Shown: piece after piece, positions 1-64,000 of the stretch | Layout: each line of letters opens with the position of its first letter | Position numbering within the stretch: the first letter of the stretch is position 1 | NCBI GenBank assembly: GCA_041664925.1 | Contig: JBAYJV010000001.1 | Span: 213,438-277,437, forward strand | Reading direction: 5' to 3' | Length of the DNA: 64,000 nt | From: Minisyncoccota bacterium | GTDB lineage: Bacteria > Patescibacteriota > Minisyncoccia > JBAYJV01 | Program-made: the position numbers and the translations under genes | The notes under the pieces: generated by a model | Databases searched by the model: none | What the model was told of the DNA's origin: nothing | What the model saw: the letters and a program-made list of their open reading frames with translations, nothing else

Positions 1-179
1 ATATTTTCAACCGTACCCATAACGATTTTTCCTGTGTAATCGTTATGTTCCGATTCAGCTGCAAACTCTTCAGTGTTTTTCTTTAAATATTCTTCTAGTT
101 TGTCGTTGTGTTGACCATTAAAATCCCATTCATAGAGAGTTTGCATGGCAACACTTCGAGCTAAATGTCTTGAGCCCAT
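1..179 (-). CDS. nusB: Transcription antitermination factor NusB, N-terminal part (gene continues past window start)
   Basis: Minus-strand ATG at 179. Translation MGSRHLARSVAMQTLYEWDFNGQ... resembles the NusB N-terminus. Confidence 0.55.
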   Translation of the reverse strand, partial: MGSRHLARSVAMQTLYEWDFNGQHNDKLEEYLKKNTEEFAAESEHNDYTGKIVMGTVEN

Positions 180-229
180 TATAGTATAGAACTAATGAAC
201 ACAGATTAGAGAACAAATAATTCGTAAAA

Positions 230-559
230 TTATTCTACTTTTAATTCCTGCGCCCCCATTTCTCTTAATAATTTATTAAGTTCGATAAGCGCATTTGCTA
301 CTTCAAGGCGCACGAAGTCTGCTTTTTCTTCATTTCTGTCTATCATTCCTCCGCTATCTGGTATCATATGTGCCATATTGTATAGTTGCTCGAGCGGGGC
401 ATAACATTCCTCAATGGGCCTATGTAATTTTCTGATTTCTTCTCTTAACTTATTTTCTGTTTCTAGATTTTTTAAAAGTTCTGCTATATGTTCTGGTGTA
501 TTTTTATCTTCCAATTGATCGCCTTGCTCTTGTCCTGGCTTTAATTCTTGTTCTGACAT
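230..559 (-). CDS. hypothetical acidic helical protein (start taken at MSEQELK; the longer track ORF needs a TTG start)
   Basis: ORF track; no SD; lies between rpmF and nusB. Confidence 0.35.
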   Translation of the reverse strand: MSEQELKPGQEQGDQLEDKNTPEHIAELLKNLETENKLREEIRKLHRPIEECYAPLEQLYNMAHMIPDSGGMIDRNEEKADFVRLEVANALIELNKLLREMGAQELKVE

Positions 560-644
560 ATTGTTAAATTTATAAATTAAATATAAAAATCTACTTATTC
601 TGAGCTTGTTAAAGAATTTCCATATCCGTGACAATGCGTTTTGT

Positions 645-932
645 TTAGTGCTTTTTTGAAAGATCGCCTAAGTCCAATGGCTTATTGGCTTTTGTGTCTT
701 TTTCTTCTTTGGCTAATTGTTTTGATTTTTCTTTTTTCTCTTTCTTGTCCAATTTTGCTAAAACATCCACTCTTTTTATTCCTTTATAATAGCCGCAGTT
801 TGAACAAAGATTATGAGGTAAAACTGGTTCACCGCAATGAGAACAGACCCTCAGGTCTATTTTTTTAATCTTAAGATGAGAGCGTCTTTGGTTGCGTCTG
901 GAAGTTGTGTGTCTCTGTTTTGGGACGGGCAT
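645..932 (-). CDS. rpmF: 50S ribosomal protein L32 with Lys/Glu-rich C-terminal extension
   Basis: MPVPKQRHTTSRRNQRRSHLK N-terminus and CxxC...CxxC zinc ribbon typical of L32. Confidence 0.8.
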   Translation of the reverse strand: MPVPKQRHTTSRRNQRRSHLKIKKIDLRVCSHCGEPVLPHNLCSNCGYYKGIKRVDVLAKLDKKEKKEKSKQLAKEEKDTKANKPLDLGDLSKKH

Positions 933-1049
933 GAATCAATAAACATTAAAAATGAATAAACATTCTTTCTTGCGAAAGTACGACTTTCCTTGGAAAGTAA
1001 AGTTAATGGTAGCAAATAATCTTGGAAAAGTAAAGAGGGGTTGGTCCTT

Positions 1050-1559
1050 TTACAAAAAAGAGTAAAGTAAAAAGCTTAAAAGCCAGCCTAAAACAGCTCC
1101 GCCCACAATATCAATCGGCCAATGAAGACCGGTAATGATTCGACAAATACCCACTATCAGGCCCATGACCAATACTACCGAACCAAAGATGGGTGAAAAA
1201 TAAAAAATAATTGTTCCTGCGGCAAATAAAGGAGCTGCGTGTCCCGAAGGAAATGCCGGATCATTTTTTTTCTTTTTTAATAATATTTTAGTTTTTTTAT
1301 TAAGATATGGCCGCTCTGTGAAATGAAGAGTCTTAATTAAAACTGCTGCCACCCATGAAAAAGTGCTAATCAACCCAATAGCTATTAAAGAATAACGGCT
1401 TAAGCCAAAGATTTTTGCTAACGAAGGCACCAGAAATAAGATTCCTAAAAAAATTGTAAAATAAAAAACAAAATCTCTTGCCCAGAAGATAAAAAATCTA
1501 TCAAGTTTTTTCGATCTTCCTACCAAGTTATTTAGTTTGAAAAATATTACTCTGTTCAT
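1050..1559 (-). CDS. PAP2-family membrane phosphatase (undecaprenyl-diphosphatase-like)
   Basis: PSGHAA and HWPIDIVGG PAP2 motifs; multiple TM segments. Confidence 0.7.
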   Translation of the reverse strand: MNRVIFFKLNNLVGRSKKLDRFFIFWARDFVFYFTIFLGILFLVPSLAKIFGLSRYSLIAIGLISTFSWVAAVLIKTLHFTERPYLNKKTKILLKKKKNDPAFPSGHAAPLFAAGTIIFYFSPIFGSVVLVMGLIVGICRIITGLHWPIDIVGGAVLGWLLSFLLYSFL

Positions 1560-1568
1560 CTTTTAATT

Positions 1569-2804
1569 TTACATATGCTCACCGAGCTCGCCTTTGATTA
1601 TATCTTTATGTTCTGCTATTCTCTTTTCAAAAACTTTTCCCAAAATACCTGCCAAGAAAATTGAAAGTGCCGCTATTGGAAAGAAAATAACAATTCTCGA
1701 GTCAGGAAAGAGCAAGAAGAAAAAACCAGCAAAAGCGTAGATAAAAAAAGTACCCAAGTTTTGGACAACTTCACAAAAGACAATAAATCTCCCTTCATGA
1801 ATCCTTTCTCTTTGGGTCGTATCATAAATATAGGCAGTTAAAGGAGTTGTATCTAAGGTATCGCCAATTTGAAGGAAACTTTGAGCGGCGACCGCTGAAG
1901 GAGCTCCTTGGACAAAAATTTTGGCAATTTGACCAAGTGATGCCAAGAAACAGCCCGATCGAAACACTTTTATTTTATCGTACTTATCAGTTGCATGAGC
2001 CGTATAGAAAATTATTACTAAAGAAAGTAGTAGAGATATAGAACTAATAATTCCCAAATTGGCGTAATTGATTGCTATAATGAAAAGGAAAAGAGGCCAA
2101 AAAATTGTACTAATCCCAGAGTCAACTCCGTAAAGCATTAAAGATAATGTTTTTAATCGCCATCCTTTTTTGAAAATAAGACCAATTGCTGATTTATATG
2201 AATCTTGATAATGGGGCTTAATTTCAATGCTCAATATCAGAGGAATCATAGATAAAAGAAGAATAATCGTAACAATAATAAATAAAATATGAAAACCAAA
2301 CTCTGTTAAAATGAAAGCTCCTATCAATGGTCCCGCAACTGATCCAGCTAGCGTGATGACATTTAAAAAGCTTAACTGTTTTCCCCTTTTCTTTCTGCTT
2401 GATAATTTTGCAAAATCGGCATGAAAAGCCGGAAGAAAAGTGATTCTATAAAGAGTTGCTGCTATGGGCGCCAAATAAATTAACCAAGCCATTTTCCCTG
2501 AAAAAAATAAAAGAAGATAAAATGCCATTAAAAACGGGATTGAAAGAAGCATGCTATGCTTAACTCCGTACCTGGCCATTAATCTGCCACCAAGAGGAAC
2601 AAGTAAACTGTGTCCTCCTAAAATAAAAGCGTAAAACAAAAAAACCTTAGAAAGACTATTTCCAAAAAAAGTATAAAGAAAAATTGGTTCGTAAAGACCA
2701 ATTAACTGAATGCCGAAACGTCTTAATCCAACACTGTAATAAATCTCATCTACGCTTCGATGAATGAAATAATTGAAAATATGTTTGGGTCTATGAAAAA
2801 TCAT
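1569..2804 (-). CDS. polytopic membrane transporter (MFS-like)
   Basis: 411 aa, about 12 hydrophobic segments; no specific motif recognised. Confidence 0.4.
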   Translation of the reverse strand: MIFHRPKHIFNYFIHRSVDEIYYSVGLRRFGIQLIGLYEPIFLYTFFGNSLSKVFLFYAFILGGHSLLVPLGGRLMARYGVKHSMLLSIPFLMAFYLLLFFSGKMAWLIYLAPIAATLYRITFLPAFHADFAKLSSRKKRGKQLSFLNVITLAGSVAGPLIGAFILTEFGFHILFIIVTIILLLSMIPLILSIEIKPHYQDSYKSAIGLIFKKGWRLKTLSLMLYGVDSGISTIFWPLFLFIIAINYANLGIISSISLLLSLVIIFYTAHATDKYDKIKVFRSGCFLASLGQIAKIFVQGAPSAVAAQSFLQIGDTLDTTPLTAYIYDTTQRERIHEGRFIVFCEVVQNLGTFFIYAFAGFFFLLFPDSRIVIFFPIAALSIFLAGILGKVFEKRIAEHKDIIKGELGEHM

Positions 2805-2814
2805 TGTGTGTCTT

Positions 2815-2890
2815 TTAATTAGTCTCTGAGGACTTGTCTCTCAGGGCTAATCCCTGAGGACTTGTCTCTCAGGGTCAATCCCTGAGGATT
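2815..2890. repeat. tandem ~30-nt hairpin repeat (CCTGAGgacttgtctCTCAGGG x2 plus partial third copy) in the tsaC/transporter spacer
   Basis: direct reading of 2821-2885. Confidence 0.7.
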
Positions 2891-3447
2891 CTTGGAACAT
2901 TTCCAGAAGCATCAATCACTTTTGATGGCTTATGTTCTTCCAGTTCTCCGCCATCTAAAATTAAATCTGGCCTTATCTTTTCTTTTTTAAAAATTTCTAT
3001 AATCCTTCTTATGTCATTCCCTAATGGTTCACCAGAAAGATTGGCTGATGTTTGAGCAAGGGGAAATCCTAGCTCGTCTATGAGCGCTATTACTAGCTGG
3101 GAATTGGGAATACGAATACCAATTGTTTCCTTTTGAAAGGGGAGTTGTCTTATAAGTGGTAAAACAAAAGTATTGGCCGATTCTAATAATCTTTCCTGGT
3201 CTTTTCTTATTGTAGCATAATCTCTGGCCATCAAGATATCCCCAACGAAAGTCCCTATTGGCTTTTCTATGTCTCTTTTTTTTATCTCGAAGATTTTTCT
3301 AATCGCTACCTCGTCAGTCGCATCACACACCAAACCATAAACCGTGTCCGTTGGCACAATAACCACGCCGCCTGATTTGATCACATTGGCAGTTTTTTGA
3401 ATAACTGTTTCATTTAAATTTTCCAAATCAATTTTTAAAATTTCCAT
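2875..3447 (-). CDS. tsaC: L-threonylcarbamoyladenylate synthase (YrdC/TsaC family)
   Basis: VIVPTDTVYGLVCDA YrdC signature; length 190 aa. Confidence 0.8.
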   Translation of the reverse strand: MEILKIDLENLNETVIQKTANVIKSGGVVIVPTDTVYGLVCDATDEVAIRKIFEIKKRDIEKPIGTFVGDILMARDYATIRKDQERLLESANTFVLPLIRQLPFQKETIGIRIPNSQLVIALIDELGFPLAQTSANLSGEPLGNDIRRIIEIFKKEKIRPDLILDGGELEEHKPSKVIDASGNVPRILRD

Positions 3448-3493
3448 AATAGACAGATTTTAACATTCAAATTATAAAATAAAAAGGTCGGAG

Positions 3494-3880
3494 TTATTGC
3501 TCCGACCTTGTCATTTTCTCAAGCACTTCTTGTTTCTTTAGTTCTTCTTCTAGTTTATCTAGATACTTGAGAACTGCCCTCCGTTCTTTTTGGCTAAGAC
3601 CATAGAAATTTCCTTGCCTGAGATGATCCATAGTCTCCCGTAAGATTGTGATTCTTTCTTTTTGAGAAAGTCTTAATGCTTCCTCAAAAATTCTTAATCT
3701 ATCTTGTCTACCCGCCCTAACGACTGATATTTCATCTTGCGCTTCTACTTTTCTTGATGCTTGCAATTCTTCTAATGCGCAATCGATAATATTACGAATT
3801 ATGTCTTTTTGATATTCTGCTAAAGATTCAGAGTATCTATTAGCTGCTTCAAGCGCGTTAACCAGTCTCAGCGAGATCAT
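3494..3880 (-). CDS. hypothetical helical protein (start at MISLRL after SD AAAGGAGG)
   Basis: own promoter TTGACT-17-TACGAT at about 3905-3933 (minus strand); terminator hairpin 3470-3500. Confidence 0.5.
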   Translation of the reverse strand: MISLRLVNALEAANRYSESLAEYQKDIIRNIIDCALEELQASRKVEAQDEISVVRAGRQDRLRIFEEALRLSQKERITILRETMDHLRQGNFYGLSQKERRAVLKYLDKLEEELKKQEVLEKMTRSEQ

Positions 3881-3954
3881 TATTTCCTCCTTTTTGTTAG
3901 ATTTCTTTTTCTCTCCGTATCGTATCACGCTTAGAATAAAGAGTCAAGACATAT

Positions 3955-3982
3955 AAAAAAAGGCGAGCCTTGCTCGCCTGTA
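3955..3982 (-). terminator. intrinsic terminator (GGCGAGCaaGGCTCGCC + T run) after ORF 3988-4881
   Basis: hairpin followed by T-run on the minus strand. Confidence 0.6.
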
Positions 3983-3987
3983 ATGAT

Positions 3988-4881
3988 TTACATCTTCCTC
4001 AAGGCTTCATCAACAACTTGAAGCACAGGAGTAGTCTTGTAAGGATAAACACCCTCCACTGCTCCCTGATGTTTGCCAGATTGCCAACTGGCAACGATTT
4101 TCCCTGTTGGTTTAAACCCCTCTAATTCATAAGCATTAACCACTCGGTTAATAGGCTTATTACCAACAACTTCTCCATCGAGAACAATTAGATCTCCAAG
4201 CTTACAATCTAGCTTCAGGTGAAGTATTGTAAGAACATCAATCCCTCTAGTTTTGCGATCCAGACAAACTAGTGCTTGACAAATACGTTCTTTGCCTCGC
4301 CAAACAACTTTTACTTCCTGCGTAAAAGGAGTATCAATAAGAGACGCTTTAACTTCGTACAAGGGAACACTGCTTAGCTCTGAAAAAAGCCTTGATCCGC
4401 TTCTAACAATTTCTTCAAGTGCCAAATCAAAACCGAAATGATCTTGTTCAAGACATGGGCACACTAGACCGGTCGGCGTCTTCAGGAAAACTTCCTCTAC
4501 CCCTTCTCTTAGTGCAGTTCTCAGAGGATAACATATCTCTTCAATAGATCCTCCCAGACCTGAACCAATCGTATCACAATCAGGATAACTAGGCGCTCCT
4601 TTATCTCGATGAAGAGCCAATAAAACTTGCTGGCCATCGCTCAATTCGACAATCATCGCTGCTCCACCAGCTGGCCAACGCCAATCAGTGTTTGAACTAG
4701 CCTCAATGACCTTGCGGCTAAGCTTATTGACTGCCACAGAAGGATTATCAGCTATTTCAACTCGCAGATGTCCTGGTGTAATAGTAACATCAGATGTTTG
4801 TACTAGTAAAAAGGTCTCTTTTTCTTGAATTGCCAACAACTCCGCTAGTGTCAGCAAGGGAATCTGTCTCACCTCATCCAT
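3988..4881 (-). CDS. hypothetical protein, paralog A of a divergent pair (start MDEVRQ after SD AAAGGAGG)
   Basis: shares ...V.L..LhRD... and ..GG..IEE motifs with 5064-6014; G+C visibly higher than neighbours. Confidence 0.5.
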   Translation of the reverse strand: MDEVRQIPLLTLAELLAIQEKETFLLVQTSDVTITPGHLRVEIADNPSVAVNKLSRKVIEASSNTDWRWPAGGAAMIVELSDGQQVLLALHRDKGAPSYPDCDTIGSGLGGSIEEICYPLRTALREGVEEVFLKTPTGLVCPCLEQDHFGFDLALEEIVRSGSRLFSELSSVPLYEVKASLIDTPFTQEVKVVWRGKERICQALVCLDRKTRGIDVLTILHLKLDCKLGDLIVLDGEVVGNKPINRVVNAYELEGFKPTGKIVASWQSGKHQGAVEGVYPYKTTPVLQVVDEALRKM

Positions 4882-4974
4882 CTTTGTTCCTCCTTTATAG
4901 AACAGGACTTTTTGTCCCGCACCATAAACACGTTGTTTAAAGTACTGTATCTGTATTCTATGGTATTTTTTTAA

Positions 4975-5031
4975 AAAAGTCAATCTATTTAGTAATATTA
5001 TTGACAAGTTTGAAATAATTTGATAGGATGT
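4975..5031. promoter_or_regulatory. back-to-back divergent sigma70-like promoters (minus: TTGACT-17-TAGAAT; plus: TTGACA-17-TAGGAT)
   Basis: hexamers read directly; -35 boxes about 20 bp apart. Confidence 0.6.
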
Positions 5032-5063
5032 TGTCAGTTCTCAAACAAAGCATAAAAGGAGAC

Positions 5064-6014
5064 GCAATGACTTTCAAACAATTAAGCGAAGTGACTGGTC
5101 AAAGAGTTGATCTTTTGACTGTAAGAACAACTAATGCTAGTGTTTTTCAGAATCAATTAGTAGTTCATCTTAATCCAGATCCCGAAGTTTTAACAACTTC
5201 TCGCGAGCGAAGAGAGCACGGTCAAAGTGACAATCACGAATGGCTTAAGTCCCAGATTAAAAAAGTAGAGAGTTCTTCTTCTATAGCAATTATTAATGTA
5301 GCTGACCAAGATCATCCTCTTGAGGTTGTCACGGGAGATGTCTGTGTTGTCCTTGTCGTTGAAGGCAAGCGCTATATTGTGAGCTTGTTGCGAGATATCT
5401 GGCCTGTGGGCTGGCTTAGTCCGGGAGGATGTCCCAGAAGTTTTATAGAACTTTTGAATATTGTGGCTGTGGCTGAAAGAGAAGCTTGTGAAGAACTGAT
5501 CATTGCTGACACTGATATCAATATCTATGTCTTAGATTCTCCTCAAAATGTAGCACGTCACAAAGAAATACTAAGAATTCTTGGACTTTATGAACACAAG
5601 CAGAAATTCCATTTCCTCTGCACAGCACAGGTGCGAGAATTAAGTCCCTATCCTGGACATGCTAATCGTTTAACTATCTACCAAGGCGGAGAACAACTTT
5701 GCGATATCGGCAATCTCAATCTGTCTATTGATCCTGTGACAGCTTCTGTCGCAGCGACGCTTTATTGGGAAATTGAGCTGCCTATTCCTTTGTCTAAACT
5801 TCGCCTGTTTGATGGAGAGCTTCTTCCTGACGGATCACTTCTCGGTCGCCCGGTAAGACTAACCCAAAAAATTGCTCTTGCCGAAGCGCCAAGTAATGAC
5901 AAAGACGAAGTTGCCGCGCTTTTCTATCGCGGAATCAATGTTCTTAATACCAGCTGGCTAAGCCCGACCATGGCTTCCAGAATCGTTGATCCCAAACAAC
6001 CTGTTCTTTCTTAA
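5064..6014 (+). CDS. hypothetical protein, paralog B (start MTFKQLS after SD AAAGGAG; the track start at 5028 lies inside the -10)
   Basis: motif similarity to 3988-4881; promoter and SD positions. Confidence 0.5.
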   Translation, partial: AMTFKQLSEVTGQRVDLLTVRTTNASVFQNQLVVHLNPDPEVLTTSRERREHGQSDNHEWLKSQIKKVESSSSIAIINVADQDHPLEVVTGDVCVVLVVEGKRYIVSLLRDIWPVGWLSPGGCPRSFIELLNIVAVAEREACEELIIADTDINIYVLDSPQNVARHKEILRILGLYEHKQKFHFLCTAQVRELSPYPGHANRLTIYQGGEQLCDIGNLNLSIDPVTASVAATLYWEIELPIPLSKLRLFDGELLPDGSLLGRPVRLTQKIALAEAPSNDKDEVAALFYRGINVLNTSWLSPTMASRIVDPKQPVLS

Positions 6015-6033
6015 GATTTGAATACAACTAGAT

Positions 6034-6066
6034 ATGTACGAGGTTCGACCTCGTACATTTTATTTA
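6034..6066 (+). terminator. intrinsic terminator ATGTACGAGGTtcgaCCTCGTACAT + T run
   Basis: perfect 11-bp stem; the same stem recurs at 25974-25998. Confidence 0.7.
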
Positions 6067-6122
6067 TCAATATTTATTGATTAAAAAAACAGGGTTTTCT
6101 TTTACAAAAAACCCTGCTATTT

Positions 6123-6347
6123 CTAAGTTGCGGTCGCAATTTCCCTTCTAATCTGATCTCTGATATCGGCGTCTTCACTATCTGTTAAACCAAGGGCAAG
6201 TCTCATTCCATATAATTTTTGCCATGTATCGCTTTCCTCTTTAAGAGTGTACTCTATTTTGTGCTTCTTGCATTCCTCTGGTCTTAATATAGATTTTTTT
6301 ACTTCTCTCTCATAAACTTCCCGCCCTTCTTCGATAGTTTTGTGCAT
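6123..6347 (-). CDS. hypothetical 74-aa protein (start MHKTIEEG, 6 nt after GGAGGGG)
   Basis: preceded by the full leader module; terminator hairpin 6084-6118 on the minus strand. Confidence 0.5.
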   Translation of the reverse strand: MHKTIEEGREVYEREVKKSILRPEECKKHKIEYTLKEESDTWQKLYGMRLALGLTDSEDADIRDQIRREIATAT

Positions 6348-6473
6348 TTTCCCCTCCATTAGAGATTGTTGCTGAACTACAGTGAAGTTAGAAACTCTTA
6401 GGTCCCGGCTTGCCGGGACCACATTTATTTCCAAGAACTATCGACATCCTAACACATTAATAATTTTTGTCAA
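6348..6473 (-). promoter_or_regulatory. promoter (TTGACA-16-TAGGAT) plus conserved 5' leader: AGTTCTT box, GGTCCCGGCAAGCCGGGACC hairpin, TAAGAGTTTCTAAC..., ...AATCTCTAATGGAGG
   Basis: exemplar of a leader family seen at 10 or more loci in this window. Confidence 0.6.
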
Positions 6474-7037: not shown

Positions 7038-7200
7038 AAGTTTAAAAAATTCAAAACGCAAAGCGCAAATCTCAAAGCCACAGCTCAAAATTAAAAACTA
7101 ATAAATTATAAGATTAAAAAGATTTTAGTTTTAAGTTTAGTTTTGACTTTTGAACTTTGAGTTCTGAGTTATCAATGAGTTAATTCAAAATTCTATAATA

Positions 7201-8265: not shown

Positions 8266-10095
8266 TTATTCTACTGTTACTGATTTTGCCAAATTTCTCG
8301 GCTTATCAATGTCGCAACCACGCAACACCGCTACATAATAAGCAAATAATTGAAGAGGGATAACGCTTAAAATCGGCGTTAACATTTCAAGAGTTTTCGG
8401 AATATAAATAATGTCTTTAGTTATACTTTGTATTTTTTTATCTCCTTCGGTCGCAATCGCTAAAAATGGCCCTTTTCTTGCTTTAATTTCCTCCATAGCT
8501 GAAACTATTTTTTCATAAACACTGTCTTTGGGAGCTAAAAAGAAAGTCGGGAAATTTTCATCAATCAGAGCAATCGGACCGTGTTTCATTTCTCCAGCTG
8601 AATATCCTTCAGCGTGAATATAGGAAATTTCTTTAAGTTTCAATGCTCCTTCTTCTGCGACCGGAAAATTATATTTGCGTCCTAAATAAAAGAAGTCGTT
8701 GTAGTGACAATATTTTTTCGCTAAAGATTTAATAGTATTTTTTTTATCCAATACATTTTCTGCCAGTTCCGAAAGTTTGCCTAACTCATCAATAATTCTT
8801 CTTCCCATTACAAGTGACATATTTCTTTGCCTTCCTAAAAAGACCGTTAAAAGGGCTAGTACAACCAATTGAGATACAAATGCTTTTGTTGAAGCCACAC
8901 CGATTTCCGGACCAGCATGATTATAAATTCCCGCATCAGTTTCTCTGGCAATCGTCGATCCGACAACATTGATAATTCCCAAGGTTAGTACTCCTCTTCT
9001 TTTTGCTTCTCTTATTGCTAATAAAGTATCAATAGTTTCTCCTGATTGAGAAATTGCCAAGATAGCAGTATCTTCGTTCAAGATTGATTTTCGATAACGA
9101 AATTCAGAAGCATTTTCAACTTCGACAGGAATTTCCGCATACTCTTCAATCATGTATTTCCCAACCTTGCCCGCTAAAAGGGCAGTTCCCATGCCCAAAA
9201 TAATAATTCTTTTTATTTTCTTTAATCTGTCTTCCACTAGCTCTAATCCACCAAGTTTAACCATTCCATCTTTTGGAACAATTCTTCCTCTTATCGCATT
9301 CTCAATAACTTCTGGGATCTCATTCATTTCTTTCAACATAAAATGATCATATCCTGATTTCTTAGCCTGTCCAATGTCCCAATCAAGATAATTAGCTGAT
9401 CTTTCTATCTTTTTATTGTCAAGTGTTGAAAGAGAAAAATCTTTATCAGTAATTACTCCTATTTCTCCATCATTTAAATAGATAACTTTTCTGGTGTGAG
9501 CCAAAATTGCCGCTGCATCAGAGGCAATAAAGTTTTCGCCATCGCCCAATCCAACAATTAAAGGACTCGAGTTTCTGGCAAAAACGATTTTTTCAGGATC
9601 TCTTTTCGAAATTACAGCAATTGCATAGGCACCAATAACTTGCCTTAGTGATTTTTTAACCGCTTCTTCGAGAAGATTTTCAAAATTATCTTCGATAAGG
9701 TGAGTTAGAATTTCCGTATCTGTTTCGGTAATAAATTTGTGTCCTTTTTTTTGTAGTTTTTCTTTTATGGTTTTTGCGTTCTCTATAATGCCGTTATGAA
9801 CAAGATAAATTTCTTTTTTGCAATCCCATATGGGATGGGCATTTTTATCTGATGGCTCTCCGTGAGTCGCCCACCTGGTATGAGAAAGACCAGTATTGCC
9901 AGTAATTGTTTTTCCTGAAATTGTTCTTTCTAAATTCTCTATTCTTCCTTTCTTTTTATAACAACCGCCCTTGCCATTTTTACCAATTACAACTATGCCA
10001 GCTGAATCATAGCCACGATATTCAAGTCTTTTAATGCCTTCCATCAATATAGAAAAGGCTTGTTTTTTACCAACATAACCAACTATTCCACACAT
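8266..10095 (-). CDS. glmS: glutamine--fructose-6-phosphate aminotransferase
   Basis: MCGIVGY N-terminal nucleophile, two SIS domains, C-terminal VTVE. Confidence 0.9.
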   Translation of the reverse strand: MCGIVGYVGKKQAFSILMEGIKRLEYRGYDSAGIVVIGKNGKGGCYKKKGRIENLERTISGKTITGNTGLSHTRWATHGEPSDKNAHPIWDCKKEIYLVHNGIIENAKTIKEKLQKKGHKFITETDTEILTHLIEDNFENLLEEAVKKSLRQVIGAYAIAVISKRDPEKIVFARNSSPLIVGLGDGENFIASDAAAILAHTRKVIYLNDGEIGVITDKDFSLSTLDNKKIERSANYLDWDIGQAKKSGYDHFMLKEMNEIPEVIENAIRGRIVPKDGMVKLGGLELVEDRLKKIKRIIILGMGTALLAGKVGKYMIEEYAEIPVEVENASEFRYRKSILNEDTAILAISQSGETIDTLLAIREAKRRGVLTLGIINVVGSTIARETDAGIYNHAGPEIGVASTKAFVSQLVVLALLTVFLGRQRNMSLVMGRRIIDELGKLSELAENVLDKKNTIKSLAKKYCHYNDFFYLGRKYNFPVAEEGALKLKEISYIHAEGYSAGEMKHGPIALIDENFPTFFLAPKDSVYEKIVSAMEEIKARKGPFLAIATEGDKKIQSITKDIIYIPKTLEMLTPILSVIPLQLFAYYVAVLRGCDIDKPRNLAKSVTVE

Positions 10096-10200
10096 GTTAG
10101 AATTTTTTGATGAATAAAATGAATCTTAAAAATTCTTACACCCTTCCGTAGTCCCGGCTTGCCGGGACGAAGGAGGATTACAATAACTAAAAATTGAAAA
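10096..10200 (-). promoter_or_regulatory. degenerate copy of the leader family in front of glmS (CCTTCG-GTCCCGGCAAGCCGGGAC-TACGGAAGG hairpin, GTAAGAATTTTTAAG..., ...AAATTCTAACATG), no GGAGG
   Basis: direct reading of the minus strand. Confidence 0.45.
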
Positions 10201-10294
10201 TTGAAAATTTAAAATTGCTTCTTTTCCCATTATATATCCCAACTTCAAAAGCACAATAAAAAAAGGCCCGTTAACTTTTAACGGACCTGATTTT

Positions 10295-10549
10295 CTACTG
10301 AAGAACTTGTTCTGGCAACACAATATCAATCTCAACTGGGATTCCTAGTTCTCTGAATCTTCTTATGAAACAATCAAGTGCGCTTGGTAAGCCAGACCCC
10401 TCTGAAGAAGCAGAGCATTCTTCAAGCCTGTTTACTACAGCCAAAACATCGTCTTCTCTGTGCCCTTTTTGAGCAAGATGTCTTTCCGCGGCTTCTCTCA
10501 GATGATCAAAGCCACCTTCTGCAATAACTCTCACGCCTTCCCCGTCCAT
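10295..10549 (-). CDS. hypothetical 84-aa protein (higher G+C)
   Basis: SD ...CTCTAAGAGAGGAGGG-5-ATG; terminator hairpin GGTCCGTTAAAAGTTAACGGGCC + T run at 10262-10292. Confidence 0.5.
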   Translation of the reverse strand: MDGEGVRVIAEGGFDHLREAAERHLAQKGHREDDVLAVVNRLEECSASSEGSGLPSALDCFIRRFRELGIPVEIDIVLPEQVLQ

Positions 10550-10660
10550 TTTTCCCTCCTCTCTTAGAGTTTTTTCTTGAGCTCTGCGAAAGTTAAAAAT
10601 TCTTAGATCCTGAGCGTAGTCGAAGGACTACATTAATTCAATTCAAGAACTTACATTCTC
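10550..10660 (-). promoter_or_regulatory. leader-family variant (AAGTTCTTG..., GTAGTCCTTCGACTAC hairpin, GCTCAGGATCTAAGAATTTTTAAC..., CTCTAAGAGAGGAGG)
   Basis: direct reading. Confidence 0.5.
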
Positions 10661-10852
10661 TCAAAGAACTTAGTATGAGCTATTCATACTTCGTATGATA
10701 CTATCATACAATTAGATCTTTTCTTCGTCAATATTGGGTTATCCACAGGGTACCGTATGGTACCCCGCAAGCAGAGTAAATAAAAAAAGAATCTTCCGAT
10801 TCCTGCAATATTTATTCTAAATTCTAGCTTTTAAATTCTATATTCTCACAAA

Positions 10853-11689: not shown

Positions 11690-11796
11690 ACTTTTTCTTA
11701 TCTATATCTTGCCATAATTTAAAAAATATACAAGCGATTTTGTCATTCTGAGAAACTGAAGAATCCCGCGTATCTTGAGTAGTGTTAATTTTACTT

Positions 11797-11826
11797 GACA
11801 TCTGATAAGAATGTGATAATATATAA
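11797..11826 (+). promoter_or_regulatory. sigma70-like promoter TTGACA-16-TAATAT
   Basis: hexamers read directly; followed by SD AAAGGAGG and ATG at 11851. Confidence 0.5.
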
Positions 11827-12420: not shown

Positions 12421-12448
12421 TTGACATTAAAAATTATTATGATAAGAT
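12421..12448 (+). promoter_or_regulatory. sigma70-like promoter TTGACA-16-TAAGAT
   Basis: hexamers read directly. Confidence 0.5.
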
Positions 12449-13016: not shown

Positions 13017-13024
13017 TTATCTCC

Positions 13025-41562: not shown

Positions 41563-41570
41563 AGAAATCC

Positions 41571-52167: not shown

Positions 52168-52288
52168 AAAATATTAATTAGAAAAGGTGATTGCGTCGAT
52201 CCATTTTTTACGGACCGAAACCGATCACCTTTTTGTTTTAAAATAAAAGCGCAAGAAGTCTTTTCCTGCGCCATCTGTTGTGAATACA

Positions 52289-52681
52289 TTAATCTATGAG
52301 AAGCCTATTGCTTGCTTTTAGAGCAGGCACCCTACAAAGCATAGCAATTTCCTCTGGAGTCTTATAACACAAAGTTAAAAGAACTAAAAAGAAAAGCAAG
52401 GAATTGGGAACAAATACTCCTTGAAGAGGATATTCAATCAAATGAGCATCTTCTTCGTGAAGATCTTTCTCGTTAACCCATGTCCATTTCTTTGTACCAC
52501 CATGAAATAGCGACCACCCAAGACCAAGCGGTCCCCTAAGAAGTCCTCCTTGAATCCCTCTTCCTTCAGGACATTCAAAGATTAAGAGAAAAAGAGGATT
52601 CACTCTTTCTTGGTCTGATTTTAGATATACCTTGACACATCTTGCGGGTTTTAGATCTATTCTCTCAGCCTCGTCTGTCAT
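52289..52681 (-). CDS. hypothetical 130-aa protein with C-terminal TM
   Basis: second gene of a leader-driven two-gene unit. Confidence 0.45.
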   Translation of the reverse strand: MTDEAERIDLKPARCVKVYLKSDQERVNPLFLLIFECPEGRGIQGGLLRGPLGLGWSLFHGGTKKWTWVNEKDLHEEDAHLIEYPLQGVFVPNSLLFFLVLLTLCYKTPEEIAMLCRVPALKASNRLLID

Positions 52682-52701
52682 TCAACCTCCTTTTAATAAT
52701 T

Positions 52702-52989
52702 CTAAAGATTAATCTCTGTCTTGCGACGCATCATCGTCCAGGAAATACTACACACAACATTGCCAATAAGTAGCAGAAAGACGAGATAGCCCGCCTTAGC
52801 ACCACAAACAAGTTTTTTTCGACAAATTATGATTGTCGCCACAGAAATAATACCCACCGAAAGAAGCGTTAGTGTGAGGGTTGTGTTTGATACGCTAAAA
52901 AATGATCCAATTAAAGTCGTTATACTGACATAAGTCAAAAGACAGCCCAAAACCACCCACCAATCGTATGACCTAATCCACTTTTTCAT
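52702..52989 (-). CDS. hypothetical 95-aa membrane protein
   Basis: CTCTAACGGAGGGAAAG-ATG. Confidence 0.5.
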   Translation of the reverse strand: MKKWIRSYDWWVVLGCLLTYVSITTLIGSFFSVSNTTLTLTLLSVGIISVATIIICRKKLVCGAKAGYLVFLLLIGNVVCSISWTMMRRKTEINL

Positions 52990-53146
52990 CTTTCCCTCCG
53001 TTAGAGATTCTTAACGAACTTGTGAGTTTAGAAACTCTTACGTCCCGGCTTGCCCTGCCTACCGGCAGGCAGGCGGGACAACCTTAGTTATTTTTAAAGA
53101 ACTTGCCAGTTTTAAAATCTTATCATTTTACTATTTTATAGTCAAG
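52990..53146 (-). promoter_or_regulatory. promoter TTGACT-17-TAAGAT with full leader module (AAGTTCTTT, GTCCCGCCTGCCTGCCGGTAGGCAGGGCAAGCCGGGAC hairpin, GTAAGAGTTTCTAAACTCAC, GTTAAGAATCTCTAACGGAGG)
   Basis: direct reading. Confidence 0.6.
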
Positions 53147-53193: not shown

Positions 53194-54195
53194 CTAGTAA
53201 AGATACTTTGGATCGATTTCTTGTCCTAAATGGATTGCTCGGACAACATCTGCTAGCATTTGCGCAATTGAAATGATTTTCGTATTTGGTAATCGTTTTG
53301 TTGCGGGAATTGGCAAGCTATTGGTAAAAATAAATTCAACGCTAATTCCTCTTGATCTTGCTAATCCTACGATATGGAAAAGTTTTTTATTAGCAAGTCC
53401 GCAAAGAACACCATGGGCAGAAATATAGATAAATCTTTTAAGGATTGGGTAATTTTCAATAAGATCAATTGCGATGTCTTCAAAAGTTCCACCTTCACTG
53501 ATCTCATCGTCAATACCAATGACGATTTCTTTAACTTCTCCATCAATTCCAAGAAATTTTGATTTACCATCACCCGATCTGCTTTTTTTGCCATGAATTA
53601 CTGGCAACCTCATTTCTTTGGCGAAAGTTGCTAACCGCTCTTCCCGTCCTCCGTCTGGAGTTAAAAGAGTAACATTGTCAGCCCCAATCAATCCTTCTAA
53701 CTCCTCAACGATCCGATATTTTGCCCCCAAGTGAATTACTGGTACGCCAAAATATTCTTTGACATCAAGATTATGAAGCATAATAATAACAACTTGGTCA
53801 GCGCCAGCAAGTTTTATCTCTTCGGCATAAAGCTTGGCTCCAATGGGAACACCTTTTGGTTTTTCCCGATGCGATCTGCCGTAAGAGAAATAGCCAATAA
53901 CTGCAATAACCTTTCTGGCTCCATTTTCTTTAGCAGCACGCATCAATTTCTTAAACTCAGCAAACTCTTCCTCAATCCCTCTAGTCGGTGCAAAAGTATG
54001 AAACACGAAGACAGTGCAACCATCTACATTAGAACCTTCTTCTTCTATGAGTAACTGAGGTAGCGTGTTTTCGTTTGGAAACTTAAGTATCTGATGGCGA
54101 GCGTGATCAATGCCAAGAATTTTAGCAACTTCTTCCATTAAATCTGGATGAGCACTGGTGCTTAACAGCCGAACTTTTTCTAATCCCGTTGCCAT
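53194..54195 (-). CDS. ribose-phosphate pyrophosphokinase (PRPP synthetase)-family protein, divergent
   Basis: MLHNLDVKEYFGVPV, PDGGREERLATFA and IVIGIDDEISEGGTF correspond to Prs flag/PRPP-binding motifs. Confidence 0.55.
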   Translation of the reverse strand: MATGLEKVRLLSTSAHPDLMEEVAKILGIDHARHQILKFPNENTLPQLLIEEEGSNVDGCTVFVFHTFAPTRGIEEEFAEFKKLMRAAKENGARKVIAVIGYFSYGRSHREKPKGVPIGAKLYAEEIKLAGADQVVIIMLHNLDVKEYFGVPVIHLGAKYRIVEELEGLIGADNVTLLTPDGGREERLATFAKEMRLPVIHGKKSRSGDGKSKFLGIDGEVKEIVIGIDDEISEGGTFEDIAIDLIENYPILKRFIYISAHGVLCGLANKKLFHIVGLARSRGISVEFIFTNSLPIPATKRLPNTKIISIAQMLADVVRAIHLGQEIDPKYLY

Positions 54196-54359
54196 AACAC
54201 ACCTCCGTTAGAGATTCTTAGCGAACTTTTGTGAGCCTAGAAGCTCTTACGTCCTGCCGTAGCTCCGGTTTACCGGAGCGAAGGAGGACCGCCTTTATTC
54301 TATTGTGAATGAACTTTTCCCCTTATTCTTCTTTTATCAAAGTTTTAAACGAATGTCAA
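54196..54359 (-). promoter_or_regulatory. promoter (TTGACA, weak -10) with full leader module (GGTCCTCCTTCGCTCCGGTAAACCGGAGCTACGGCAGGAC hairpin, GTAAGAGCTTCTAGGCTCAC, GCTAAGAATCTCTAACGGAGG)
   Basis: direct reading; perfect palindrome GTGTTACCaGGTAACAC at 54383-54399 just upstream. Confidence 0.55.
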
Positions 54360-54514
54360 AGAAATCGTATGTTATATTATGTAGTGTTACCAGGTAACAC
54401 TAAATAAACCCCGCACCAATTTGGTACGGGGTTCTTAATTTTGTTTCTTTTCGCTTTACTCAAAGACAAAATTAGAAAAAAGCGCCGAGTCTGACTCAGC
54501 GCCATGATTTAGAA

Positions 54515-54838
54515 CTAAGCATGCGGAAGTTGTTCTTCCCACAATTGCTTATCTTCTCCCAATAACCGATTTTTAATCGGCTTAAGTTGAATGGCAAGTT
54601 CTTCTTCACTTAATGTTCTTGGATCAACTCCTAATTGATTTGTTAATTCTTTGCGAAAACGCCTCATAACTACTTCGATTAACTTACTCTTAGGAACCTG
54701 ACATGCTTCTGAAAGCACCTCGAGAAAATCACAGACATCGGCTGTAATATTAAATTTCTATTCAATTGTTCGCTTCGAGGTACCCACGGTACAGTACCCA
54801 ATCCTTCACGAACTTTAACATCTTCTCTTTTCATCTTT
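54515..54838 (-). pseudogene. small gene apparently split by a frameshift: 51-aa ORF from ATG 54838 (leader + SD) overlaps a GTG-started 67-aa ORF (54718-54515) in another frame
   Basis: direct translation of both frames; terminator at 54478-54510. Confidence 0.35.
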
Positions 54839-54956
54839 CCTCCTATTAGATTCTCTTTGTGAGTTTACGAACATCAGAAAATCTTACATCCTGAGTTTAT
54901 CGAAGGATTATTTTTAAGAACTATTAATATCTTACTATTATTTCAATTTATGTCAA
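54839..54956 (-). promoter_or_regulatory. promoter TTGACA-16-TAAGAT with leader (AGTTCTTAAAAATAATCCTTCGATAAACTCAGGAT, GTAAGATTTTCTGA..., ACTCACAAAGAGAATCTAATAGGAGG)
   Basis: closely related to the leader at 62294-62532. Confidence 0.6.
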
Positions 54957-58680: not shown

Positions 58681-58733
58681 TTTTAAATTTTAAATTTTTA
58701 TTCTACGCTTTGCGCTTTACATTTTAAGTTTTT

Positions 58734-62293: not shown

Positions 62294-62532
62294 GTTTGAC
62301 AACAGGTATTAATTATGATAAATAGATACTAGTCCTATAAATCAGTTCTTTTAAAAATCCTTCGACTTCGCTCAGGACAAGCTCCTTCGACTTCGCTCAG
62401 GACAAGCTCCTTCGACTTCGCTCAGGACAAGCTCCTTCGACCCTTCAATTAAATTCAGGGCAGGCTTCGCTCAGGATGTAATTTTTTCTAAACCTCACAT
62501 CCGTTCGGCAAGAAAAACTAACAGGAGGAAAT
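62294..62532 (+). promoter_or_regulatory. promoter TTGACA-17-TAAATA and long leader of the same family, expanded by a tandem triplication
   Basis: AGTTCTTTTAAAAATCCTTCGACTTCGCTCAGGAC..., GTAATTTTTTCTAAACCTCAC, AAGAAAAACTAACAGGAGG. Confidence 0.55.
62359..62440 (+). repeat. 25-nt unit CCTTCGACTTCGCTCAGGACAAGCT x3 plus a partial 4th copy inside the leader
   Basis: perfect tandem copies. Confidence 0.9.
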
Positions 62533-62895
62533 ATGGCAAATCGGAAAATAGAAATCACGAAAAGCATAAAAAATTTTCTAGGATCAGTCCTAGTAACTTT
62601 TAAGATGATGGAGTTAATTATGTTTTATTGCCTTTTCTACATAGATTGTCCTATTTATGTGGATCATGAGAATGCTACTGTTTATGCAAAGACTGAAAAA
62701 ATGACAAAGAAAAAAAGAATCAGACGATCTGTGTGGGCATACATTATGTCTACGTTCCTATTTCTTATAGCGCTTGCTATTATGTCAACTCCTAGTGAAC
62801 TCTTTGTTGTCGGATGTATTTTAGGAATCATGTCTATCGGTTTAAATTCTATAGCATACTTCGACTTGACTAAGGTCACATCTATAAAAGCGTAG
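62533..62895 (+). CDS. hypothetical membrane protein (120 aa)
   Basis: SD CAGGAGG. Confidence 0.5.
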   Translation: MANRKIEITKSIKNFLGSVLVTFKMMELIMFYCLFYIDCPIYVDHENATVYAKTEKMTKKKRIRRSVWAYIMSTFLFLIALAIMSTPSELFVVGCILGIMSIGLNSIAYFDLTKVTSIKA

Positions 62896-62905
62896 AGGAG
62901 GAAAG

Positions 62906-63259
62906 ATGGCACAGGAAAGAACTTTCAGGAAAATCCGCATCGATAAATACACAAGAGATCTTTTGAAAAAAGCAGGAATTGAAAAAGCTTCTCGCTTTCC
63001 TCTTAAGGTCTCACAAGATCAAGTTGATGCGCTGAAAACAACCCTGGAGGCAATATTGCCAAAAGAGCGATCTGATTTCAGGTTTACAACCGCAGAAGAC
63101 AGTTCTGGTATCTATATTGTTTGTCTAGGTCCTTCTGGTTTTACGGCTACGCAATTCCTGAAGATAATGAGCTTGAATCCTGGTGTTGATTGGAAAAAGA
63201 TGAGAGTTTATAGTCCTTTTTGTCGAAGACCTCCGTTCTTTGCCTTCGCTTGCGCTTAA
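62906..63259 (+). CDS. hypothetical 117-aa protein
   Basis: SD GAGGAGG. Confidence 0.5.
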   Translation: MAQERTFRKIRIDKYTRDLLKKAGIEKASRFPLKVSQDQVDALKTTLEAILPKERSDFRFTTAEDSSGIYIVCLGPSGFTATQFLKIMSLNPGVDWKKMRVYSPFCRRPPFFAFACA

Positions 63260-63262
63260 ACA

Positions 63263-63297
63263 AAAAACCCCGGAAAGCCGGGGTCTTTTTTTTATTC
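63263..63297. terminator. bidirectional terminator AAAACCCCGGAAAGCCGGGGTCTTTTTTTT (CCCCGG family)
   Basis: between convergent genes. Confidence 0.75.
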
Positions 63298-63305
63298 TAA
63301 ATTCT

Positions 63306-63653
63306 TTATGCTTTCACTTTCGTCACAATCTTTTCAAATATAACCGGATGATTTTCAGCTAAGTTAGCCAAAATTTTTCTATCAAGCTCGATTTTTTTCT
63401 GCTTCAATATATTGATAAACTTTGAGTAGGTTAAACCATATTGACGAACACCGGCGTTAATCTTTATCTGCCAGAGCTGCCTGAAATCCCTCTTTCTAAC
63501 GCGTCTATCGCGATAAGCATAAGTAAGAGCTTTATAGACGGCTTGTTTTGCCGCAACATATTTTGATTTGCGACCCCATCTGTAGCCCTTTGCCATTTTT
63601 ATAATAGCTTTTTTTCGAGCTCGTTTTGCTTTTGATCGTTTTACTCTAGCCAT
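63306..63653 (-). CDS. rplT: 50S ribosomal protein L20
   Basis: [15 protein letters not shown]... Confidence 0.85.
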
Positions 63654-63657
63654 TTTT

Positions 63658-63843
63658 TTATTTTACAGCCTTTCTAATTTGGCGCGCAACACATTCAGGA
63701 AGCACTCGAGGATTGCGTTTTTTTCTTCTGTCTTTTCCTGATAATTTTGATCGGAAATGATCTTGTCCAGCGCCACGATAAACAACCTTACCATTTCTGG
63801 TAATTTTGAATCTTTTTAAAATTGATTTTCTTGTTTTTTTCAT
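63658..63843 (-). CDS. rpmI: 50S ribosomal protein L35
   Basis: 61 aa, Lys/Arg-rich, upstream of rplT. Confidence 0.8.
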
Positions 63844-63871
63844 AGTATTGTTCTAATTTTCTGAAAAATAC

Positions 63872-64000
63872 TTACTTTCTTGAAATGGTCATTTGTATTC
63901 CTTTAGGATTGTTCTTTGGTGCTTGCTCTACATTGTATGCCTCTGATATCTTAGAGAGAAAATTGTTAAGCTTTTCTTTAATTACATCTATGTGTGCTTT
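63872..64000 (-). CDS. infC: translation initiation factor IF-3, C-terminal part (gene continues past window end)
   Basis: ...EAYNVEQAPKNNPKGIQMTISRK* resembles the IF-3 C-terminus; infC-rpmI-rplT synteny. Confidence 0.6.
   Translation of the reverse strand, partial: KAHIDVIKEKLNNFLSKISEAYNVEQAPKNNPKGIQMTISRK

Follow-up and report, generated by a model that had tools for sequence, protein, structure and literature searches.

Lineage-specific orphan genes in a Paceibacterota chromosome segment carry Shine-Dalgarno sites that the conserved genes around them largely lack

Small genes of unknown function lie scattered among the AT-rich housekeeping genes of a 64 kb chromosome segment of a Paceibacterota bacterium, a member of the candidate phyla radiation (CPR), and the question raised by this locus is what sets these orphans apart from their neighbours. 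The segment, referred to here as the window (contig JBAYJV010000001.1, positions 213,438 to 277,437; coordinates below are counted from its first nucleotide), has a guanine plus cytosine (GC) content of 35.7% and holds about 75 protein genes and four tRNA genes. The initial annotation had described it as a mosaic of GC-richer orphans in an AT-rich backbone, with shared promoters, leaders and terminators. Each of the intervals listed there contains at least one real orphan open reading frame (ORF). No Pfam match above the cut-off was obtained for 21 of the 22 orphans scanned, the exception being ORPH_42476 (DUF5678); the frameshifted ORPH_54515 was outside the scan. The 52 other genes (1-64000, no strand assigned; mean GC 34.9%), here called the backbone, include by Pfam leuS, glmS, two genes for penicillin-binding proteins (PBPs), yidC, rnpA, efp, ruvC, yebC, clpB, prs and the ribosomal-protein genes rpmF, rpmH, rplT, and rpmI, among others.

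The two sets differ in front of the start codon. A Shine-Dalgarno (SD) sequence was present in 23 out of 23 orphans (AGGAGG in 17, GGAGG or AGGAG in six), located 3-7 nt, mostly 4-6 nt, before the start codon. Among the 52 other genes, 46 had no SD-like trimer at all, five had a trimer, and one, prs, had GGAGG. Thus, an SD core of at least 5 nt was found in every orphan, whereas 51 of the 52 other genes had none of 4 nt or more (Mann-Whitney U test, p = 4 × 10−15). Altogether, SD-led genes account for about 30% of all genes in the window. The SD-less genes include those for ribosomal proteins (rpmF, rpmH, rplT, rpmI, and rpsP), efp, leuS, glmS, the PBP genes, and clpB. The rpmH gene (L34; 20746-20880, + strand), located upstream of rnpA, is shorter than the 60-70 amino acid cut-off of the ORF list. 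The split was robust to the choice of the start codon, as scanning all in-frame starts from the opening of the ORF to codon +40 added no credible SD to the backbone. When aligned, the SD sites gave the consensus AAAGGAGG, which is the full complement of CCUCCUUU and ended 4-6 nt from the start codon in 26 out of 31 sites. The genomic count of AGGAGG was 39 against 19 expected, and the surplus equals the number of orphan SD sites. The 30 nt upstream of the backbone genes were 78% A+T and G-poor, with A at position -3 in 65% and T at position -1 in 62% of the genes; G made up 2-15% per position (median 6%) between -10 and -1, and these start regions fold less stably.

The same split was seen in about 20 kb of flanking sequence on the same contig, where an SD preceded none of 11 Pfam-annotated genes and six of 12 new Pfam-less genes. 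Over the resulting 84 kb or so, the association between SD and Pfam annotation had a Fisher p-value of 2.8 × 10−13. In related genomes, consensus promoters and SDs again marked the orphan orthologues. The AAAGGAGG sites were kept at perfect spacing across diverged orthologues, which argues for a functional reader, and judged by its sequence the orphan SD would pair with a canonical CCUCCUUU anti-SD. In two distant contexts, L101 and L102, a gene of the ORPH_5028 family was the sole SD-led gene among 12-16 neighbours and had a GC content above the locus average. Distant Patescibacteria loci (L004-L080) contained 0-3 SD-led ORFs per approximately 20 kb and no obvious class of them, so the expansion of the SD-led class looks lineage-specific. 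The glmS and leuS genes of loci L004-L020 also lacked an SD.

The orphans are further marked by their promoters, as the initial annotation had noticed. The motif TTGACA-N16-18-TAnnAT was found 16 times against 0.78 expected, 14 of these directly upstream of orphans, and versions with one mismatch preceded five further orphan units; the -10 hexamers of the orphans were mostly TA[G/A][G/A]AT. The start box AGTTCTT had been ascribed to nearly all units. It is indeed enriched (38 copies against 17.5 expected), but it is far from reaching nearly all of them: it was located exactly 6 nt past the -10 hexamer in six units, with near-matches in two, and further downstream in three more. It is a frequent, non-universal start-site feature of the orphan class. 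At the other end, a hairpin followed by a T-run closes practically every orphan unit, and terminator-like sites numbered 33 against 13.5 expected at 1-20 kb and 30 against 15.9 at 40-60 kb. The terminators belong to shared families (D14, D19, and D20), in agreement with the first description. The copies at 12250-12308 and 12959-13016 match over 59 nt with 91.5% identity (86-97% within families D19 and D20), and those at 49606-49657 and 50047-50098 are 85% identical.

The shared leader proposed earlier was borne out as well, and it contains a conserved helix. In order, it comprises a variable GC hairpin with GGAY at its end, TAAG, an 8-bp helix with a central mismatch (AGAGnTTCT...AGAAnCTCT), and AAC-GGAGG-ATG. 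Across 22 distinct copies retrieved with a covariance model, 96.9% of the helix cells were paired and compensatory changes occurred at five of the eight pairs, in an alignment fitted to the model, which favours pairing. The pairing score was reached by no shuffle, and slid registers scored far lower. Two copies stand 5' of backbone genes. The one upstream of glmS (10083-10143, - strand; 53.6 bits) is not followed by an SD and is kept upstream of glmS in the relative L085, while the one upstream of prs (54193-54254, - strand; prs at 53194-54195) carries the GGAGG of the sole backbone gene with an SD. A further copy precedes a short upstream ORF before argS in the right flank (L097). No copies were found with the covariance model in the more distant Patescibacteria loci, and Rfam gave no match for the leader, the orphans or the ORF-less unit at 49370-49640, either at the gathering threshold or at E-values up to 1 over the whole window.

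We consider it likely that the window holds two gene classes, an SD-less conserved backbone and a set of fast-evolving, lineage-only genes built as autonomous SD-dependent units. The first class comprises AT-rich housekeeping genes that are conserved and partly syntenic, mostly arranged in tight operons, with A/U-rich and G-poor start regions. The second comprises at least 23 small genes (74-315 amino acids) of restricted lineage, located in the gaps between the backbone operons. Each unit of the second class, a gene or a pair, has a near-consensus sigma-70 promoter (TTGACA-N16-18-TA[G/A][G/A]AT), often AGTTCTT and the helix leader, a canonical AAAGGAGG SD before the ATG, and a GC-rich intrinsic terminator. 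The orphans would then be translated by an SD-dependent route and the backbone by an SD-independent one. Only tentatively would we go on to picture two initiation channels in one cell, with the orphans as a separately controllable regulon of candidates for host interaction that is reshuffled at terminator and promoter modules. Such a regulon might, for example, be gated by the availability of the 16S rRNA anti-SD, in the way that bS21 gates it in Flavobacteria, and the orphan products would be candidate host-interaction functions of an episymbiont.

The GC difference, from which the first description had started, turned out to be smaller than stated. Instead of 42-52% against 30-35%, the orphan intervals have 33.3-45.5% GC (39.2% when pooled), and the remainder of the window has 34.9%. 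The per-gene means are 39.5% for orphans and 34.9% for the other genes (+4.6 points; Mann-Whitney p = 3 × 10−7) for an orphan set selected visually on GC. Gene GC is distributed unimodally, as the Bayesian information criterion favoured a single Gaussian component; the sets overlap, and eight of the 22 orphans are below 39%. The GC mosaic thus survives as a real difference, weak and unimodal, which appears to be a side effect of the two-class split. By codon position, the excess is +4.4 points at the first (GC1), +5.1 at the second (GC2), and +4.2 at the third (GC3). A donor-genome signature is expected chiefly at third codon positions; the orphan excess is not concentrated there, so no such signature is seen. 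Recoding of the orphan proteins with backbone codon preferences assigned 75% of the excess to amino-acid composition, the synonymous share being 25%. Orphan proteins contain less F, K, I, N, and Y and more R, C, W, Q, and V than those of the backbone; F, Y, M, I, N, and K together make up 26.4% of orphan residues and 35.0% of backbone residues. The modest GC excess of the orphans is mostly a by-product of amino-acid usage, and it is kept in most of the orphan orthologues of relatives, whatever the genome GC.

An alternative is that the GC excess and the strong signals reflect high expression, with translational selection for C- or G-ending codons in native genes. The synonymous third-position GC (GC3s) of the orphans, 0.292, is indeed near the 0.283 of the ribosomal-protein, efp, rbr, and dfx genes and above the 0.258 of the other genes, and the promoters and SDs are near consensus. 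However, just a quarter of the GC excess is synonymous, the codon usage of the orphans is no nearer to the ribosomal set than that of the backbone (distances in relative synonymous codon usage (RSCU) of 0.096 and 0.080, respectively), and the truly housekeeping, highly expressed genes, such as those for ribosomal proteins and efp, are entirely SD-less. We regard this alternative as unlikely, and translational selection as the main cause of the GC excess was rejected on the basis of the synonymous share and the RSCU distances.

Where the orphans come from was addressed by comparison with relatives. The proteins encoded in the window are named 'MAG: Candidatus Paceibacterota bacterium' at NCBI, MAG standing for metagenome-assembled genome. 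The ENA metagenome contig k141_764501 is 99.99% identical to the window over 20 kb, and a JGI contig also matches. The near-identical contigs L001-L003 (99.97-100% to the window) carry no divergence signal. The nearest GTDB species representative is a Patescibacteria MAG with a glmS product just 61% identical. Relatives of graded distance were obtained from a metagenome scan with the NTP transferase. In distant GTDB relatives leuS-glmS-yvcK-NTP transferase-Sua5-MFS are contiguous with no orphan in between. In L085 the core proteins are mostly 88-97% identical (82% for rnpA and leuS) and eight orphans occupy the same slots at 39-85%, whereas in L086-88, with a core at 50-76%, only the ORPH_3988/ORPH_5028 pair is still detectable, at 35-49%. 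L090 retains ORPH_11851, ORPH_13095, and ORPH_10295 at 40-53% (ORPH_10295 at 44%), and ORPH_13616 is retained at 28-32% in L086 and L091-93.

The rates of evolution separate the two sets at nonsynonymous sites. Compared with L085, the number of synonymous substitutions per site (dS) is the same in orphans (0.34-1.17) and core genes (0.39-0.90), while the ratio of nonsynonymous to synonymous rates (dN/dS) is 4-5-fold higher in orphans (0.12-0.56) than in the backbone (0.02-0.23). Twelve pairwise comparisons covered 11 orphans, and the orphan ratio was below 1 in each. Among the L085 orthologues, that of ORPH_3494 is 72% identical (dN/dS 0.31), that of ORPH_10295 is 84% identical in the codon alignment, and that of ORPH_17590 is 39% identical (dN/dS 0.56). 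The equal dS and the dN/dS below 1 indicate that the orphans are real genes, co-inherited with their neighbours but 4-5 times less constrained by purifying selection.

At the same time, the orphan content turns over. The corresponding intervals between core genes of relatives contain other small ORFs that are SD-led and GC-richer and have no counterpart in the window. After the NTP transferase gene the order is ORPH_11851, ORPH_12476, ORPH_13095, ORPH_13616 in the window, ORPH_12476, ORPH_13095, ORPH_11851 in L084, and ORPH_12476 alone in L085; ORPH_11851 is thus missing from L085 and at another position in L084. The stretch 13002-13952, which is missing in L085, is flanked by two copies of the terminator repeat, and in different genomes this terminator is found behind different genes. 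Content and order differ among relatives, with the slots of several orphans being kept. Of the earlier proposal of fast-evolving lineage-specific genes maintained through repeats, the first part stands on the dN/dS values and the turnover. Maintenance through repeats, as a possible mechanism, gains some support from the reused module, the changed order and the one repeat-bounded difference.

Homologues of three of the 23 orphans (ORPH_5028, ORPH_17590, and ORPH_3988) were searched for in large databases. Among 5.8 billion clustered proteins, ORPH_5028 had 22 and ORPH_17590 four homologues, the named ones belonging to Paceibacterota or to unclassified 'bacterium' MAGs. ORPH_3988 had 96 cluster representatives among 1.84 billion, none of them with a Pfam domain. 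ORPH_3988 and ORPH_5028, which are head to head in the window, belong to homologous families (hhalign probability 99.4%, E-value 4.5 × 10−22). The predicted structure of ORPH_5028, with a predicted local distance difference test (pLDDT) value of 88.8, has a Nudix-like domain with the Nudix alpha/beta/alpha fold, and on this model ORPH_5028 is predicted to be a divergent Nudix-fold protein. The Nudix box is GX5EX7REUXEEXGU. The two proteins contain REACEE and REGVEE, with R, E, E, and E near-invariant in both alignments and a spacing upstream of RE that is off the canonical box; neither matched the Pfam NUDIX family.

An all-against-all BLASTP comparison of the window proteins revealed no orphan paralogues at E-values up to 0.01, and profile or pairwise comparison later gave two distant pairs, ORPH_3988/ORPH_5028 and ORPH_17071/ORPH_17590. 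In the latter, the promoter, the 5' untranslated region (UTR), and the start region are 81% identical over 102 nt (repeat D4), while the proteins are barely alike (E-value 0.002). Shared modules in front of dissimilar ORFs may thus reflect old duplications in which the regulatory DNA was better conserved than the protein, as documented for these two pairs, and recombination between modules probably contributes too.

Capture from a GC-richer partner or host, with the foreign genes put under native expression signals (promoters, leaders and terminators), was the first reading in the initial annotation and has several observations in its favour: the GC shift, the depletion of AT-coded amino acids, a slight synonymous difference (RSCU distance between orphans and backbone of 0.070 against a null of 0.042 ± 0.008), and the adjacency of the backbone genes in distant GTDB relatives. 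Against it, the shift is small and even, with a third-position difference no larger than that at second positions, and the GC excess persists in the orthologues of relatives with different genome GC. The three searched families have 4-96 relatives, and the named ones pointed to no donor lineage outside the clade. The orthologues stand in the same slots with dS matching that of the flanking core genes. No integrase, transposase, phage or other mobility or recombinase domain was found by Pfam scans of all window proteins and the flanks, and no defence signature was found either. Furthermore, the expression framework is not simply that of the native backbone, as the orphans use a strong SD that the backbone lacks. 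Capture is therefore quite improbable.

Still less probable is an origin of the orphans as scattered relics of prophages, plasmids or defence islands. Their small size and unknown function, a strong promoter and SD for each, a content that varies between relatives, one DUF5678 gene, one weak PLD-like match, and one frameshift would fit such an origin. However, PHROG profiles over 20 orphans and PADLOC over 10 gave one marginal match each, ORPH_25091 had no Pfam, PHROG or PADLOC match, IMG/VR contained no relatives of the two orphans searched (ORPH_25091 and ORPH_33253), no integrase, transposase or flanking repeat was found, and the orphans stand alone or in pairs at roughly a dozen distinct sites whose positions are conserved among relatives. 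That the orphans are spurious ORFs over structured non-coding RNAs or repeats is hardly credible and largely refuted, for although the intergenic DNA is rich in GC hairpins and repeats and the unit at 49370-49640 does lack an ORF, dN/dS is below 1 in all orphans compared, every orphan has a canonically spaced SD, ORPH_5028 has a confident Nudix-like fold, and the ORFs occupy the interval from promoter to terminator without any Rfam match.

We thus return to the two classes of SD-less backbone and SD-led lineage-specific genes, against which several points weigh. The orphan set was first picked by eye, partly on these same signals, and in the Pfam-based test 11 Pfam-less genes were still without an SD. 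The GC excess of SD-led genes shrinks to approximately +3 points in the flanks. The sequence covered amounts to about 84 kb of one genome plus 10-20 kb per genome in a few relatives. Neither the conserved 3' motif nor Rfam located a 16S rRNA gene in the window, the flanks or the relatives' loci, so the pairing partner of the SD is one that we infer from the complementarity to AAAGGAGG. A single clean pair of breakpoints speaks for recombination at the modules. The two-class account does not explain why the amino acids of the fast-evolving orphans stay less AT-biased than those of the conserved core. An old origin of the orphans in a GC-richer pool, with synonymous sites equilibrated since, would still be compatible with the data, and nothing in them points to a host or partner. 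Finally, Tsurumaki et al. (2022, PMC9297842) detected the anti-SD motif in just 48% of Parcubacteria 16S genes and proposed that no SD helices are formed in these lineages.

Turning to the individual orphan units, ORPH_3494 (unit 3484-3947, - strand; coding sequence (CDS) 3494-3880) has a TTGACT-17-TACGAT promoter at 3919-3947, an AGGAGG SD, a terminator hairpin at 3484-3509, and no Pfam match. The adjoining ORPH_3988 (3961-4983, - strand; CDS 3988-4881, 43.1% GC) has a TTGACT-17-TAGAAT promoter at 4955-4983, an AGGAGG SD, and a terminator at 3961-3979, and ORPH_5028 (5001-6058, + strand; CDS 5067-6014, 42.7% GC) has its promoter at 5001-5029, an AGTTCTC start, an AGGAG SD, and a terminator at 6034-6058. 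The ORPH_6123 unit (6088-6473, - strand; CDS 6123-6347) combines a promoter at 6446-6473, AGTTCTT at 6433-6439, the leader at 6345-6405 with a hairpin at 6402-6419, and a terminator at 6088-6118. With 45.5% GC, ORPH_10295 (10264-10731, - strand; CDS 10295-10549) is the GC-richest of the set; its TTGACG-17-TATGAT promoter is located at 10703-10731, the leader at 10547-10610, and the terminator at 10264-10288.

On the + strand, ORPH_11851 (11795-12308; CDS 11851-12243) has a promoter at 11795-11822, an AGGAGG SD, and the terminator module 12250-12308 (D19 and D20), and ORPH_12476 (12421-13016; CDS 12476-12955) has a promoter at 12421-12448 and the module 12959-13016. ORPH_13095 (13095-13589) and ORPH_13616 (13616-13948) share one + strand unit (13029-13995) with a promoter at 13029-13057, AGTTCTT at 13064-13070, an SD for each ORF, and a terminator at 13970-13995 of the same family as the module of ORPH_12476. 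ORPH_17071 (17011-17536, - strand; CDS 17071-17457) has a promoter at 17508-17536, AGTTCTT at 17495-17501, and a terminator at 17011-17038. The corresponding elements of ORPH_17590 (17553-18163, - strand; CDS 17590-18084, 44.4% GC) lie at 18135-18163, 18122-18128, and 17553-17574. Two further - strand units are those of ORPH_25091 (25044-25952; CDS 25091-25879; promoter 25924-25952; SD AGGAG; terminator 25044-25072) and ORPH_33253 (33213-33925; CDS 33253-33741; promoter 33898-33925; AGTTCTT 33885-33891; leader 33739-33798; terminator 33213-33247).

Four + strand units stand in a row at 40542-42843. ORPH_40542 (40542-40874) has no clear promoter and a terminator at 40883-40903, ORPH_40957 (CDS 40957-41562) is enclosed by a promoter at 40905-40932 and a terminator at 41571-41595, ORPH_41658 (CDS 41658-42074) by 41599-41627 and 42091-42112, and the DUF5678 gene ORPH_42476 (CDS 42533-42808) by 42452-42480 and 42819-42843. 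Within the 458-nt intergenic stretch between the last two, the region 42075-42450 contains several GC hairpins, no ORF, and no Rfam match, and could be a non-coding RNA. ORPH_49710 (49660-50073, + strand; CDS 49710-50036, 33.3% GC) has a promoter at 49660-49687, an AGGAGG SD, and a terminator at 50052-50073 of the same family (D14) as that at 49611-49632. The orphan sites do not adjoin tRNA genes; ORPH_49710 comes closest, with another unit in between.

ORPH_52702 (52702-52989) and ORPH_52289 (52289-52681) form a - strand unit (52248-53145) with a TTGACT-17-TAAGAT promoter at 53117-53145, the leader at 52987-53045, and a terminator at 52248-52272. The ORPH_54515 unit (54481-54956, - strand) has a full module of promoter (54929-54956), AGTTCTT (54916-54922), leader (54832-54891) and SD, with the ATG at 54834 and a terminator at 54481-54503, yet a frameshift interrupts the ORF between 54834 and 54718. 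A pseudogene, programmed frameshifting or an error in sequencing could each account for the break, and the C-terminal part of the product looks ribbon-helix-helix-like. The last unit (62296-63293, + strand) consists of ORPH_62533 (62533-62895) and ORPH_62906 (62906-63259), with a promoter-like sequence at 62296-62323, AGTTCTT at 62344-62350, the leader at 62474-62535, and a terminator at 63268-63293. Within the 5' leader of ORPH_62533, TCCTTCGACTTCGCTCAGGACAAGC is repeated in tandem as three perfect copies of 25 nt (62358-62441), and TCCTTCG...CTCAGGA hairpins related to these repeats form the variable first stem in several leader copies.

Some further elements resemble parts of the orphan units. 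On the + strand at 49370-49640, about 240 nt of 43% GC without an SD-led ORF lie between a perfect TTGACA-16-TATAAT promoter and a terminator from the same family as that of ORPH_49710. The unit has a folding z-score of -2.3 and contains CGCCUCCCCCUUCUUC with a CCUCC motif; it is a candidate small RNA whose CCUCC could in principle pair with orphan SD sites. In the stretch 40164-40406 on the - strand, one of the two perfect promoters unlinked to an orphan lies 215 nt upstream of a gene for an 820-amino acid double ATP-grasp protein, the long 5' UTR of which contains TCGACGAAGGAGA repeats and possibly a small ORF from 40318. In the right flank (L097, with its own coordinates), the leader copy before argS is part of an element at 4116-4300 in which it precedes a 16-codon ORF (MKKRLGVLVCAETAVE); a hairpin with a T-run comes next, just 5' of argS, and the element looks like an attenuator. 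The same flank contains an uncalled SD-led ORF of 76 codons at 3767-3997 and, beside smpB, the transfer-messenger RNA gene (2758-3102, - strand) with a weak match to the leader model (33.5 bits) directly upstream.

Other observations concern the backbone. T-rich periodic repeats of TTTTGAG/TTTTAAG (D2, D3, and D7), found at 7110-7168, 16896-16954, 31975-32033, 33157-33191, 42952-42978, and 58698-58732, precede idi, leuS, efp, yebC, polX, and a tRNA-Ala gene, and may represent a second leader grammar tied to SD-independent initiation. In leuS (14422-16150, - strand), five in-frame repeats of the TTTCGGATTTCGGATTTCG type encode SEIRNPKSETNS-like peptide insertions, at which the alignments to relatives break. 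The strongest compositional outliers of the window, deviating more than any orphan, are 27052-29555 (27-29% GC) and 35581-37696 (29-31% GC). These contain radical-SAM/DUF5131-like, DUF4178, YheC/D ATP-grasp, and GNAT genes and a Pfam-less gene for a 349-amino acid protein, and could be the true foreign DNA.

A GC mosaic alone would be a routine signal of accessory genes, and SD-poor genomes are already known; the notable result is the near-perfect partition of the SD between conserved and lineage-specific genes. If the split holds genome-wide, it would allow the accessory genes of uncultured CPR bacteria to be recognized from sequence alone, make start-codon choice in SD-less bacteria testable within one genome, and suggest that lineage-specific genes can be regulated as a block at the level of translation. 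It is also a warning for gene callers that train a single ribosome-binding site model per genome.

Several known systems share features with the orphan units. An integron has an IntI tyrosine recombinase, an attI site, and a common promoter Pc, and its promoterless cassettes end in attC. The orphans resemble such arrays in being short single-gene units in rows, unrelated in function, with a hairpin repeat after each gene and a variable order. They differ in having no integrase or attI, a promoter of their own in each unit, about a dozen scattered sites, and 3' repeats that are ordinary hairpin and T-run terminators (attC models were not run). With genomic islands the orphans share a composition unlike that of the backbone and an absence from relatives further away, but there is no donor signature in GC3 or codon usage, no mobility gene or tRNA-linked insertion, and dS equals that of the neighbours. 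On these features, both an integron cassette array and a classical genomic island were rejected. With ORFan accessory genes the orphans share homologues confined to a narrow lineage, raised dN/dS, small size, and variable presence and order between conserved neighbours; unlike these, the orphan class is marked by uniform expression signals that core genes do not share.

No published description of a class-specific SD split was found in the literature searched, which is not proof that none exists. The Parcubacteria reported to lack an anti-SD belong to the same broad group, and the backbone genes of the window as well as glmS and leuS of L004-L020 are SD-less. The absence of SD helices proposed for those lineages contrasts with the dozens of perfectly spaced AAAGGAGG sites that this genome keeps. 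The closest precedent comes from Bacteroidetes, in which nearly all genes are SD-less, the anti-SD is occluded by bS21, bS18, and bS6, and a few ribosomal-protein genes, rpsU and rpsR, keep a strong SD for autoregulation (Jha et al. 2021, PMC7797042). The window, in which rpsU, rpsR, rpsF, and the 16S gene do not lie, is a partial match in its start regions: conserved genes are nearly all SD-less with A/U-rich starts and A at -3 in 65%, and a minority has a perfect SD. Unlike in Bacteroidetes, however, this minority amounts to about 30% of the window genes and consists of lineage-specific orphans with a promoter and leader grammar of their own, while the ribosomal-protein genes seen are those without an SD.

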